From positions 18,360 to 82,359 of the IMG/VR virus record IMGVR_UViG_3300031992_000067: 64,000 nt of DNA, one strand, 5' to 3'. Position 1 is the first letter of the stretch; every line of letters begins with the position of its first letter. Made by a program: the position numbers and the translations under genes. The DNA is from a virus (taxonomy: Duplodnaviria; Caudoviricetes). The notes beneath the pieces are model-generated. The model made no database searches. It was not told the DNA's origin and saw only the letters and a list, made by a program, of their open reading frames with translations. This document shows positions 3,067 to 59,472 of the stretch, piece after piece.

Positions 3067-3116
3067 AAGTTATTGACAGGTTGTAAACATATTGTAGAAA
3101 AAGGTTATAACAAAGT

Positions 3117-3812: not shown

Positions 3813-3842
3813 TGGTTAAGATTTACCTTATACAGGTTATAA
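3813..3842 (+). promoter_or_regulatory. Putative phage promoter TGG(C)TTAA-N16-GTTATAA
   Basis: TGGTTAA at 3813-3819, 16-nt spacer, GTTATAA at 3836-3842; same geometry at 5019 and 6426. Confidence 0.6.
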
Positions 3843-3934: not shown

Positions 3935-4897
3935 ATGAACGAGAACATGAACACATACGCCCTCTCCAACCTCCCCTTCAACGGGGACCTTCTGACCTCG
4001 AAGGAGCGTGAGGTTATCGTCGAAAGCTGGGACGGGGAGGCCCAGCTCATCGACGACGTGGCGTCCATCCACGTCGCGGTCCATAGCGGGCAGGAGTTCC
4101 ACGCCGACGAGGCGTTGGCTCTGGCTCTCCTCCGCGTCCTCTCAGGCGCGGAGATCACGTGGACTAGGACCCGTGACCCCAAGGTCCTCTCCGAGGCCGA
4201 CCTCCGGGTCGACGTCGGGGAGGGTCTCCTCGACCACCACGGGGCCAGGGCCGAGGCCGGGGTAGCCGCCTGCACTCGTGTCTTCGCCCTCCTCCGCAAC
4301 TCTCGCACCCAGCCCCGCGAGGTGTGGGAGGTCCTGGAGCCGGTCGTGATCGCCACGGCCGCGATGGACACCGGTATGTCCACGGTCAATGTGAACCCCT
4401 GGGTTCACGCGGCGTGCCAGGCGGCCCGCGCCCGCGGCGAGAACCCCGACGAGGCGTTCGCGAAGGTCGTTGAAAAGATGACAGAGTTCGTCGTCGACCT
4501 CGTCGAGGCGGCCCGGGCGGCGGCCAAGGCGAAGGCCGCTGCGGAGCGCGAGATGGATGAGCTTGGTGACGCTCCAATCGTCATCTTCTCCTCCGCCTCG
4601 CGTCTGGCTGACGTGAAGAAGATGATGTGGGAGAAGAAGCGCGCCTGCATCTACTTCATCAGCCCCGAGTCCGAGTCGGATTGGCGCGTCCTCTGCGCCG
4701 CCGACCCGGATAAGCCCTACAGCCCGTTCGACTCCCGCCGTCTGATCCCGGAGAAGTTCCGGGGTCTCCGCGGCGTGAGCCTTGACGAGGCCGCTGGGAC
4801 GACTGGCGGCGTATTCTGCCATGCCGCCGGCTTCATCGCCGGGTTCTCCACGCGCTCGGCGGCCTTCCAGTTCGCCACGGCGTGTCTGGAGGACTAG
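3935..4897 (+). CDS. MYG1 family (UPF0160) metal-dependent hydrolase / putative RNA exonuclease
   Basis: HSGQEFHADE, RTRDP, DVGEG..DHH and C-terminal FCHAAGFIA are hallmark MYG1 motifs. Confidence 0.85.
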   Translation: MNENMNTYALSNLPFNGDLLTSKEREVIVESWDGEAQLIDDVASIHVAVHSGQEFHADEALALALLRVLSGAEITWTRTRDPKVLSEADLRVDVGEGLLDHHGARAEAGVAACTRVFALLRNSRTQPREVWEVLEPVVIATAAMDTGMSTVNVNPWVHAACQAARARGENPDEAFAKVVEKMTEFVVDLVEAARAAAKAKAAAEREMDELGDAPIVIFSSASRLADVKKMMWEKKRACIYFISPESESDWRVLCAADPDKPYSPFDSRRLIPEKFRGLRGVSLDEAAGTTGGVFCHAAGFIAGFSTRSAAFQFATACLED

Positions 4898-4967
4898 CCA
4901 CCGCACCCCATGCACGTGGGGGTTTCACAAACTTCAAGGCCCCGGCGCGTGCACGCCGGGAACAAAA

Positions 4968-4995
4968 GAGGCGGCTAGTAACCGCACTCTTTTTT
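4968..4995 (+). terminator. Intrinsic terminator after the MYG1-like gene
   Basis: GAG-GCGG-CTAGTAA-CCGC-A-CTC followed by TTTTTT. Confidence 0.7.
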
Positions 4996-5018
4996 ACCTT
5001 TTTGAGACATGGGTAAAA

Positions 5019-5049
5019 TGGCTTAAAAAACGCATAAAATACGTTATAA
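5019..5049 (+). promoter_or_regulatory. Putative promoter for the large ncRNA
   Basis: TGGCTTAA at 5019-5026, 16-nt spacer, GTTATAA at 5043-5049; first RNA stem starts at 5058. Confidence 0.6.
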
Positions 5050-5057
5050 GTATTTAC

Positions 5058-5990
5058 ACGGGGAAGATTACGCATCGGCATGGTTCGGTGACGAAACCGT
5101 TTCCCGTTGCTCTGGGGTCATCTGGAATGGGACGCACCCCGGATCCCGTGGAAGCGGGACACTTGAGAGCGGCAGGTCTGGCCGGCGAGCTCGTCGGTTA
5201 AGATAAAACTGCGTGGAGATGGATTACCACGCAGGACTTGTCGCACGCGCCCGGACGGCGCGTGACCTTCCCCCGGGTGGCGGTGAGGGGATGCCGGAAT
5301 CAAGTAACCGGTATGGAGTTCAGACACGGGCTCCGGCTTGTTGTGGTTTGGCAACGCAACAGGTTATAAGTCGTGAGGGCATGGCTTAGCGACTACGTGT
5401 CTAACCTCTAAGCAGCTCCTTAATCCGGGGAGCATAGGGGCTGATCAGGGATAGCCTTCTTCCAGAGGTGCCCAGGTGGAATGACGGTCCACCGGCTGCG
5501 GATCATAACGATGGTATAACTGCCGCAGCAAAAGACTGTTTCGGGCCAAGCCTGTTTCGAAGCAGTCCACGTCATTTCAGCTTCTCGGGCCATGTGGAAT
5601 TCTCGCATCCGCCCCATGGTCCATGTAAAGAGCGATCCCCCGCGCAAGTGGTTGGCAACATGCGCGGAAGGGTATGCGAGGTACGTCGGAACATCGGCAG
5701 CAATGCCATGTTTCTCGGGCGTAGGATAATTCCGGATGGGTGAGCGTCTCCCCTACCCGGGCATGCCAAAAACCCCTCGAAAGGTGAGGCTGGTTGAATG
5801 AGACGCCTGCACGGAATGTCCACGGTCCGTGCGAGTACACCGCGCCAACGGCGGTAGTGGAACGTTTTCCGGCTTAGGCCGGTAAAGCCCCAGGTCGCAA
5901 GGCCAGGGGCGAGGTGGAAGGCCAGGTGCTCCAGCGGACTTACAGGCGCACGTTGCGTCTGGGTTTCTGGAAGCTTGGTGGCCCACTAGG
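5058..5990 (+). ncRNA. Large highly structured non-coding RNA of unassigned class (boundaries approximate)
   Basis: No credible ORF over about 930 nt; about 20 consecutive hairpins; GNRA loops at 5088, 5150, 5700, 5779 and 5897; G-U pairs; two 7-bp pseudoknot-type pairings. Confidence 0.75.
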
Positions 5991-6018
5991 CTAGTAACCT
6001 TCATAGGAAAGGATTTTT

Positions 6019-6261
6019 ATGAAAACAACTGCGCCGTATCGCTCCTTCGGCAAGGGCAAGCCCGACAACCTCAACCGGCGTTTCGCCGACCGTACCCGTA
6101 CCGAACAGGTCGAGCGGGTCTCGGAGGGTGTGGTCGTCCACTGGGCGACCCCACGTCCGGACCGCCTGACCGAGAACAAGTCCGAGGAGGAACGCAAGTT
6201 CTTCCGGGACTTCGGTCCCAGGTACACCAAGAGGCACCCGGGGCCGCAGGCCCGCGGGTAG
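6019..6261 (+). CDS. Small basic hypothetical protein
   Basis: 80 aa, Arg/Lys-rich, RBS AAAGGA upstream. Confidence 0.65.
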   Translation: MKTTAPYRSFGKGKPDNLNRRFADRTRTEQVERVSEGVVVHWATPRPDRLTENKSEEERKFFRDFGPRYTKRHPGPQARG

Positions 6262-6380
6262 TCGGGTGGCAGTCGGGAAAGACCGACCCCAACGTACAGG
6301 CGTTGGGGGGTGAAAGCCCCCAGATGGAAAGAAGTGCATCGTCCGTGCGCCGCATCCAGCGGTGAATACGGACGATGCAC
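6261..6380 (+). ncRNA. Structured RNA element (hairpin cluster)
   Basis: Perfect 13-bp stem 6334-6346/6368-6380, CCCAACG/CGTTGGG stem, GAAA tetraloop hairpin. Confidence 0.45.
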
Positions 6381-6381
6381 G

Positions 6382-6411
6382 AAGGGAGCCGCGCCTGTGA
6401 GCGTTCCTTTT
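6382..6411 (+). terminator. Putative intrinsic terminator
   Basis: AAGGGA-GC...GC-G-TTCCTT followed by TTTACCT. Confidence 0.5.
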
Positions 6412-6425
6412 ACCTGTTATCCGTG

Positions 6426-6456
6426 TGGCTTAATAAAAGGCCTAACGGAGTTATAA
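6426..6456 (+). promoter_or_regulatory. Putative phage promoter TGGCTTAA-N16-GTTATAA
   Basis: TGGCTTAA at 6426-6433, 16-nt spacer, GTTATAA at 6450-6456. Confidence 0.6.
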
Positions 6457-6548
6457 CAATTTACCGGGGCCCGACTATTACGGACTCGGCCATGCGGGTG
6501 CATGGTCAGGACGCGTAATACGGCAGGTTCCACAACCAAGGAAACACA

Positions 6549-6764
6549 ATGAAGAAACGTTTCTTCGGCCGCGCCGTACAAGACGGCGTGGTAGTTTGCG
6601 AGGGGTTTGAGATCACCCCCCGCGAACATAAGGTCGCGATCTCCCCTAGGCTCGAGGCCCAGCGCCTCATGCGTGAGCAGGCACAGCGGAGGATGTCCGC
6701 CACCACGCGCAGCAATGTCGCGTGGAAACCCATCGTCGCCAAGGTGGAGGTGCAGAATGGATAG
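6549..6764 (+). CDS. Small basic hypothetical protein
   Basis: 71-aa ORF with AAGGA RBS. Confidence 0.6.
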   Translation: MKKRFFGRAVQDGVVVCEGFEITPREHKVAISPRLEAQRLMREQAQRRMSATTRSNVAWKPIVAKVEVQNG

Positions 6765-7183: not shown

Positions 7184-7269
7184 GAACCGACCTAATACCT
7201 GGCGGTTCCTTAGATTAGTTCCTTCGCTGGAACGAAATCTCTGGAACTGCCACGGTATTAGGCCGGTTC
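7184..7269 (+). other. Long intergenic hairpin (86 nt)
   Basis: GAACCGACCTAATACC pairs with GGTATTAGGCCGGTTC (1 mismatch), and TGGCGGTTCC pairs with GGAACTGCCA. Confidence 0.7.
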
Positions 7270-18498: not shown

Positions 18499-18882
18499 AT
18501 GATGGTATGGCTTGAAGGCGTTGAAGGCGCCTCGCTGGCAGGCATCCAGGTGTTCAGGACCTGGGAGAACCTGCGTGAGCATTGGCGTTTGAATCACAAC
18601 GCCAGTAAAGCGCTGCTCGCCAGTCTTGACGAAGATGTGCGGAAGCTTATGAACGGCACCGCCATGTTCGCGGAGGTTGGATTTTACACGCAGGGAGACT
18701 ATGGAGCAATACACTATTGTGCGCGACCCGTGGTCGTGGACGACTGGTACGAAACCCCGGCCGATCGTGTCGAGGCGCTCAAGGGTGCTAGATTCACGCG
18801 GGACGAGATTGAGGACGCCCGTGGCATTCTGAACACCGTTGAGCAAGTGTTAAACAAGGAGGAGAACGATGACAACCAATGA
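18499..18882 (+). CDS. Hypothetical protein
   Basis: ORF in operon. Confidence 0.6.
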   Translation: MMVWLEGVEGASLAGIQVFRTWENLREHWRLNHNASKALLASLDEDVRKLMNGTAMFAEVGFYTQGDYGAIHYCARPVVVDDWYETPADRVEALKGARFTRDEIEDARGILNTVEQVLNKEENDDNQ

Positions 18883-19381
18883 ACCTACCGGCGTTGAACT
18901 GCCGGTGACACAGGACGAAATCAACAAGTGGATCGTTGACGCAGGTCTCAAGGCCGTCACGGCCAAGCGCCTGTGCAACGTGATCGACAAGCTCGGAATC
19001 GACGGATTCGCGGCGTCAGGCAAGGGCGTATGGAACGAGACGTACCACACGTGTGTTGAATCCAACGTAGACCTTGGAAAGGCCGGGCTCAAGGTCTTCG
19101 AGGACTGCGCCCGCTTCATCAAGGAGCGCAAGTTCCAGAAGAAACTCGAGATCCGCAAGCAAGAGAAGGCCAAGGCCGAAGAGGCCGCAATGGAGGCCGA
19201 ACTCGCCAAGAAAGTGGCCGAAGACGAAAAGCGGATCAACCCGAAGTTCACACGTGCGCAAATGAAGAAGGTCGCGGACTTCATGGAGATGGAGGACATC
19301 CCGGAGGTCGACCTGAGGTGGGTCAACGACTTCTTCAAGATGTTCCCCGTCAAAGAACCGGAACAAACCAAGGAGAACTAA
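18869..19381 (+). CDS. Hypothetical protein
   Basis: GGAG RBS, 170 aa. Confidence 0.65.
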   Translation: MTTNEPTGVELPVTQDEINKWIVDAGLKAVTAKRLCNVIDKLGIDGFAASGKGVWNETYHTCVESNVDLGKAGLKVFEDCARFIKERKFQKKLEIRKQEKAKAEEAAMEAELAKKVAEDEKRINPKFTRAQMKKVADFMEMEDIPEVDLRWVNDFFKMFPVKEPEQTKEN

Positions 19382-59315: not shown

Positions 59316-59391
59316 GGGCCCTTGGCGCAATGGTTAGCGCGTGGCACTCATAATGCCTTGGTTGCAGGTTCGAGTCCTGCAGGGCCCACCA
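59316..59391 (+). tRNA. tRNA-Ile2 (anticodon CAT, lysidine type; Met not fully excluded)
   Basis: 76 nt; GGGCCCT/AGGGCCC acceptor stem, A73, CCA; loop CT-CAT-AA; T-loop TTCGAGT; resembles bacterial Ile2 tRNAs. Confidence 0.85.
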
Positions 59392-59395
59392 TTTC

Positions 59396-59472
59396 GGACC
59401 GGTAGCTCAATAGGACAGAGCGTAGGATTCCTAATCCTAAGGTTGCGGGTTCGATCCCCGCCCGGTCCGCCA
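59396..59472 (+). tRNA. tRNA-Arg (anticodon CCT)
   Basis: 77 nt; GGACCGG/CCGGTCC acceptor stem, G73, CCA; TAGGA-TTCCTAA-TCCTA anticodon arm. Confidence 0.92.

Follow-up and report, generated by a model that had tools for sequence, protein, structure and literature searches.

We consider it probable, on balance, that the gene-free region at 5058-5990 of the DNA analysed here forms the untranslated leading part of an accessory early unit of ~1.36 kb, which opens with an autonomously folding RNA module of ~520 nt. This DNA, referred to below as the window, is a stretch of 64,000 nt corresponding to bases 18360-82359 of an 82-kb IMG/VR record (G000) that is estimated to be 55% complete. In the unit that we propose, the promoter P1 would fire early and transcription would end at a terminator near 6412; 5058-5580 would constitute a lineage-specific RNA module of two multi-helix subdomains, with the 5' end of the transcript buried in the first closing helix; and behind the module there would follow a rapidly evolving linker of 230-410 nt with weak structure and one conserved 21-nt core, the gene of a basic and probably disordered protein of 80 aa (ORF80), and a hairpin-rich trailer. 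The region is non-coding, and the module has a common fold that is conserved in one diverged homolog. Compared with the first proposal, the RNA is less common, covers fewer nucleotides and is less of an independent unit: an earlier note on this DNA had described a discrete non-coding RNA of ~930 nt, whereas structure and conservation span ~520 nt (5058-5580) and the predicted transcript runs on into the 80-aa ORF. We infer a dual-function or giant-leader RNA, and not a non-coding RNA of 930 nt that stands by itself.

The early region and its transcription unit

The window encodes a family A DNA polymerase, a DnaB-like helicase, an SbcC-like ATPase, an RNA ligase and a large terminase, and nearly all of its genes lie on the + strand. 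The family A DNA polymerase of G000 is less than 26% identical to the polymerase of any GenBank phage. The features of the early region that surround the RNA are collected in Table 1.

Table 1. Features in and around the RNA region (positions in the window unless another sequence is named)
Feature	Position	Strand	Description
MYG1-family gene	3935-4897		own promoter copy at 3813-3842 and own terminator
Intrinsic terminator T1	4965-4999	+	GAGGCGG-CTAGTAA-CCGCACTC, then TTTTTT, then TTTACC; L011 copy identical
P1, promoter-like	5019-5049	+	TGGCTTAA-N16-GTTATAA; conserved in L011
Subdomain D1	5058-5275	+	closing helix 5060-5071/5262-5273; hairpins including GUGA (5088) and GGAA (5150) tetraloops
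Subdomain D2	5276-5580	+	closing helix 5276-5285/5568-5576; about nine hairpins
Variable 3' leader	5581-6018	+	438 nt, against ~260 nt in L011; unalignable except for the core
Conserved core	5769-5789	+	AAAACCCCTCGAAAGGTGAGG; L009 ~5144-5164; L011 ~905-925
19-codon uORF	5798-5857	+	behind the core
ORF80, small basic protein	6019-6261	+	80 aa; 19 K+R, 11 D+E; AGGAAAGGA ribosome-binding site
3' trailer	6262-6415	+	four hairpins, then terminator T2 and TTTTACC

The promoter-like sequence TGGCTTAA-N16-GTTATAA, which the earlier note had placed ahead of the first stem, is indeed present. There are two exact copies of it in the whole 82-kb record (5019-5049 and 6426-6456), against none expected by chance, and a third, which lacks one base (TGGTTAA-N16-GTTATAA, at 3813-3842), stands ahead of the MYG1-family gene. 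All three copies belong to the early region and are found 20-30 nt past a hairpin, a T-run and TTTACC; because each lies directly past a terminator and TTTACC, the copies resemble promoters that each serve a self-contained early cassette. Judged from their sequence and setting, P1 and its siblings would be active promoters, with a transcript that probably starts near 5056-5058. The leader behind P1 is ~960 nt long, versus ~90 nt behind each of the two sibling promoters. Neither a terminator (5580-6019 checked) nor a recognisable processing site was found between the RNA and ORF80; with no terminator there, the unit should begin at P1, extend for ~1.36 kb and end at the terminator near 6412.

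ORF80 has a positive coding score under the codon-usage model, its L011 homolog (76% identity) differs by an in-frame indel of 15 nt, and the codon changes between the two in the C-terminal half are six synonymous and four non-synonymous; on these grounds it is probably a real gene. No Pfam or PHROG match to its product was found, and the ESM Atlas model, with a pLDDT of 0.40, suggests that the protein is probably disordered. The 3' trailer behind it (z -6.27, reached by 0 of 200 shuffles) is thermodynamically more exceptional than the large RNA itself; it is 93% identical in L011, and a 13-bp hairpin within it carries a compensatory change from C-G to U-A.

The MYG1-family gene just upstream has a G+C content of 66-70%, versus ~55% for the genome, and has no counterpart in L011 or G001. 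A linkage of the RNA to this gene was considered and rejected because of that absence, and the gene looks instead like a recently acquired cassette, unlinked to the RNA. Two further features of the early region were observed. The operator-like words CAGGTTGTAAACATATTGT, TTGTCAATAAC and TGTTGACAG are repeated upstream of early promoters at 3080-3112 and at ~4965-5000 of L009, and form a dense array in positions 1-200 of L011. A near-perfect long hairpin (CCTAATACCTGGCGG ... CCACGGTATTAGG) is found at 7190-7265, in the gap after a zinc-ribbon membrane gene, and the 300 nt around it fold with a z of -8.7.

Coding capacity, homologs and distribution

All six reading frames of the region hold a mixture of TAA, TAG and TGA stops, so that no single stop-codon reassignment opens a frame, and reassignment was ruled out for this reason. 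In a codon-usage gene call over the 82 kb, no gap that is truly free of ORFs exceeds 4898-6018 (1121 nt); a single 'gap' is larger, and it is a 428-aa open frame of atypical composition. This agrees with the earlier description of the region as the only long stretch without a credible gene. Chance ORFs in the region reach 91 aa, and its open segments are not common to L011. Between the window and L011, the module (5058-5580) has undergone five indel events, each of 1 or 2 nt, and its substitutions are spread 17/17/9 over the three phases with no codon periodicity. As an observation on the genomes at large, the open frames of 428-434 aa at 480-1767 of G000 (outside the window) and at 148520-149855 of G001 have a low G+C content (44-49%) and atypical codon usage, and are classed as non-coding by the codon model of the genome itself.

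L011, a 1718-nt ENA contig that was reached via the downstream ORF (76% identical protein), is the only diverged copy with DNA. It carries T1, P1 and the first ~520 nt at ~92% identity; similarity collapses at ~5585-6000 and then resumes in the ORF and the 3' trailer (~93%). The identical stretch recurs in five or more other assemblies: two JGI contigs with 100% identity, the 190,627-nt ENA contig ERZ27257202 and two Logan runs. Two sequence variants of the module are known, those of the window and of L011. Both G000 and L011 hold the module, ORF80 and the trailer together, and the 5' module and ORF80 are missing from the two relatives with complete genomes, G001 (polymerase 77% identical) and G002 (63%).

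Wider searches returned little else. In four relatives found via the neighbouring caspase-like gene (G003-G006), blastn of the four whole records gave no DNA match to the module, and among 18 loci of caspase-gene relatives there was no nhmmer match except to G001's own leader; blastn against GenBank phages likewise gave no match to the region. Patterns run against IMG/VR (promoter-plus-start, two 18-mers of the 5' module, and the 19-mer core) found only G001, by the core alone; the core pattern in JGI metagenomes found G001's own source contig and three chance matches in coding DNA, and the 19-mer in GTDB genomes found one chance match without nhmmer similarity. A homolog search by ORF80, ORF71 and the zinc-ribbon gene recovered L011, identical copies (L034 and L035), and one contig without upstream DNA. 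Contig ERZ27257205 has an ORF80 that is 98% identical. This narrow distribution, with the module missing from six relatives, fits a dispensable insert.

Homology of a small ORF of G001 to ORF80 or ORF71 was tried and rejected, as was the idea that the large 'gaps' of G001 and G002 hold analogous RNAs; these gaps are atypical ORFs or a tRNA array. The array of G002 comprises ~20 tRNA genes (L032 16771-19285, equivalent to G002 156771-159285, - strand), and its non-tRNA spacers of ~120-390 nt (for example, 18825-19212) have no Rfam family match. Downstream of the caspase-like gene of G002, a proline-rich tandem-repeat coding region of the PQPRPAPARPA type (133358-134018, - strand) fills the slot of the accessory cassettes of G000.

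The 3' leader between the module and ORF80 behaves differently from the module. Its identity to L011 per 50 nt drops to 10-50%, with large gaps, and in fold tests that used 410 nt of the window and 230 nt of L011 it gave z values of -2.8 and -0.6, respectively, with +0.1 for the leader of G001. The L011 3' leader is homologous to the 235-nt leader of G001 (nhmmer E 0.0016). The core AAAACCCCTCGAAAGGTGAGG is all of the leader region that is retained in G001: it is matched at 21 of 21 positions there and at 19 of 21 in L011, amid otherwise unalignable leaders. It is a single-copy element in each genome and is missing from G002; a role as general phage promoter was rejected, since the core occurs only once per genome. 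An ATG follows 7-11 nt past the core in all three lineages, where the peptides are unrelated. The CCCCTC half of the core is complementary to GAGGGG at 5287-5292.

Folding of the 5' module

On the + strand, 5058-5990 folds at -418.9 kcal/mol (z -4.9), against -342.1 kcal/mol (z -1.2) on the - strand, which upholds the earlier view that the structure belongs to RNA of the + strand. The signal above background comes from the 5' module, where z is -4.9 on the + strand, -2.25 on the - strand and -5.9 for the L011 copy; D1 (z -6.0) and D2 (z -3.9) were each reached by 0 of 100 shuffles, and 5581-5990, with a z of -2.8, folds at the level of ordinary coding sequence. Folding that is better than both shuffles and genomic background, in a strand-specific manner, was accordingly found for 5058-5580 and not for 5581-5990, so that the claim that almost all of the region pairs holds beyond background for the former part and fails for the latter. 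Better folding than in shuffles is a general property of this genome: ten coding control segments of 933 nt gave z values from -0.1 to -4.7 (mean ~-2.3). Among 11 segments of equal length the full 933 nt ranked first and had the largest energy excess (-41.6 kcal/mol), without forming a class apart. Some 300-nt coding segments of this genome reach z values of -5 to -6.6, and because coding sequence also attains such values, thermodynamics alone is weak evidence.

The homolog allowed a comparative test of the fold. RNAalifold, applied to 5058-5580 of the window and 319-843 of L011 (a single diverged homolog), gave a consensus of 165 pairs. Fifteen of these differ between the two sequences, and all fifteen are still canonical, with none broken: in three, both bases differ (G-C to U-A or A-U), and in the other twelve one base differs, via G-U. 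The consensus energy is ~-221 to -223 kcal/mol on the + strand versus -164.8 on the - strand. When the same 43 substitutions were re-placed randomly at positions of the same base in 150 trials, the null consensus energy was -195.6 +/- 6.0 kcal/mol, and the observed -223 was reached by 0 of the 150. The null remains valid if the changes are shared out between both lineages, since a break in either sequence is enough to remove a pair from the consensus. Taken by itself, the number of compensatory pairs does not reach significance (null mean 1.25; 12% of trials reach three, p ~0.12). Of the five indel events, four are located in predicted loops or junctions, and several changes in L011 turn a mismatch or wobble of the window into a Watson-Crick pair, for example in 5060-5071/5262-5273. 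A comparison of MFE values (p 0.005-0.01) was set aside because it does not tell selection apart from shared inheritance of an ancestral structure; part of the fold signal could be a legacy of this kind rather than maintained.

Each of the two subdomains is closed by a long-range helix, and the probable 5' end of the transcript is paired from about its third base, within the closing helix of D1, which is improved by the L011 changes at 5264 and 5266. The compensatory pairs of D2 are located in helices 5413-5420/5436-5443 and 5534-5548/5553-5567. The seven stems that had been proposed from the sequence are all fully complementary, G-U pairs being allowed. The five GNRA loops listed with them (GTGA 5088, GGAA 5150, GCAA 5700, GAAA 5779 and GCAA 5897) are likewise present; two of them, GUGA and GGAA, are kept as tetraloops in L011, but the remaining three lie in the non-conserved 3' part, and none of these is conserved as a hairpin. 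GAAA at 5779 has only ~2 closing pairs and is part of the conserved 21-nt core, not of a tetraloop hairpin.

Interpretation and comparison with known RNAs

The folding of the module appears to be autonomous, since the linker between it and the ribosome-binding site of ORF80 is unalignable and folds at background level. In the reading that we prefer, the module would work at the RNA level, perhaps as a stable RNA scaffold or a decoy partnered with the basic protein that the unit also encodes; alternatively, it might be a cis element that stabilises or controls the ORF80 message. No partner, target or catalytic motif of the module was identified in the sequence analysis.

The same anatomy could be read as that of a free-standing, trans-acting large ornate non-coding RNA, of a new class analogous to GOLLD and ROOL, that is released by processing and possibly assembles. 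In favour of this reading, the module is a compact element with a closed 5' end that folds autonomously, has two conserved GNRA tetraloops, and is parted from ORF80 by the non-conserved linker; moreover, such RNAs of unknown function are known in phages (PMC12286853). Against this stand the lack of a terminator or recognisable processing site before ORF80, the restriction of the support to ~520 nt rather than 930, a family of two sequence variants only, the loss in L011 of the palindromic AGCU loop at 5188, and the position of the tRNA genes, of which Rfam covariance models and ARAGORN found only two in the window (59316-59472), 54 kb from the RNA region. We regard this reading as unlikely. 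That the module represents a new, autonomous class of trans-acting phage RNAs and is its first member, released from the early transcript, also seems unlikely; if it were true, the module might form a particle with the ORF80 protein or an RNA-only assembly, interfering with a host function or defence.

A non-functional spacer, or the decaying remnant of an insert, whose structure would reflect composition and shared ancestry, agrees with the absence of the module from six related phages, with the free evolution of the adjoining 3' part, and with the tendency of coding sequence in this genome to beat shuffles as well. It accounts poorly for a consensus energy kept far better than under random placement of substitutions, for the absence of broken pairs among those that changed, for the asymmetry of the z-scores between strands, for the retention by a compact phage genome of 1.1 kb behind a strong-looking promoter, and for the identity of the stretch across at least five independent assemblies, and we consider it improbable. 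A coding gene hidden by recoding, frameshifting or several micro-ORFs could draw on the chance ORFs and on the uORF behind the conserved core, but the mixed stops in all frames, the absence of shared open segments in L011, the small indels, the lack of codon periodicity and the unrelated uORF peptides of the three lineages make it scarcely credible. Size, phage origin and many GNRA-looped hairpins do recall the ornate RNAs, yet it is very unlikely that the module is a highly diverged ROOL, GOLLD, OLE, HEARO, group I or II intron, tmRNA, RNase P or 6S RNA. Among all 4227 Rfam families (cmscan, Rfam 15), raiA included, the whole window gave only the two tRNAs at gathering score, and 4850-6700, searched at E up to 10, gave four weak and irrelevant matches, all outside 5058-5990. 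G000 had no match to the group II D1-D4 model, and no tmRNA was found by ARAGORN. The ROOL covariance model (RF03087) gave no candidate in G000, G001 or G002; as it likewise gave none in control genomes, the ROOL negative rests mainly on the search of 4850-6700 at E up to 10. The earlier note was correct in matching the region to none of tmRNA, RNase P, 6S and the group I and II introns; the kinship that it inferred with GOLLD, ROOL and OLE, as a new or diverged member, was not found by covariance models.

Two functional types were also tried and rejected. A CsrB/RsmZ-type sponge for CsrA is not indicated by the 27 GGA in 933 nt, versus a genome mean of 27.0 +/- 5.2 per 933 nt, and an rrn-type boxA leader was dismissed because 5000-6500 holds no TGCTCTTTAACAA-like match with three or fewer mismatches, this boxA being of the E. 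coli type, which may not be the host's.

To our knowledge, very few natural RNAs of more than 500 nt with elaborate folds have been described, and the function of the phage ones is still open. Another RNA of this kind would be useful, especially in a self-contained early cassette beside a candidate partner protein, and the arrangement of RNA and ORF80 offers a compact system for tests of expression, probing, binding and deletion. Its value is limited for now by the tiny family and by a transcription that is deduced from sequence, and a giant structured 5' leader, the conservative reading, is just as likely as an RNA that acts in trans.

ROOL and GOLLD are phage or prophage RNAs of unknown function that are usually found near tRNA islands (PMC12286853). 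The module resembles them in being phage-encoded, longer than 500 nt and devoid of coding capacity, with a multi-junction fold of many helices. It differs in having no covariance match and no adjoining tRNA island, and in being fused to the mRNA of a small protein; hundreds of sequence variants of ROOL and GOLLD are available, against two of the module. OLE is a large chromosomal RNA of bacteria (Bacillota), with adjacent genes for partner proteins that have been demonstrated experimentally. The likeness to OLE lies in a large structured RNA that stands beside, and co-occurs with, a small protein gene whose product could bind it; there is no similarity in sequence or model, and the binding of the ORF80 protein to the module is purely conjectural. 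Finally, RNAIII of Staphylococcus aureus is a dual-function RNA of 514 nt with defined targets of regulatory base-pairing. In both RNAIII and the proposed early unit, one transcript joins extensive conserved structure to a short translated ORF, with the difference that the structured part of the module lies wholly upstream of ORF80.
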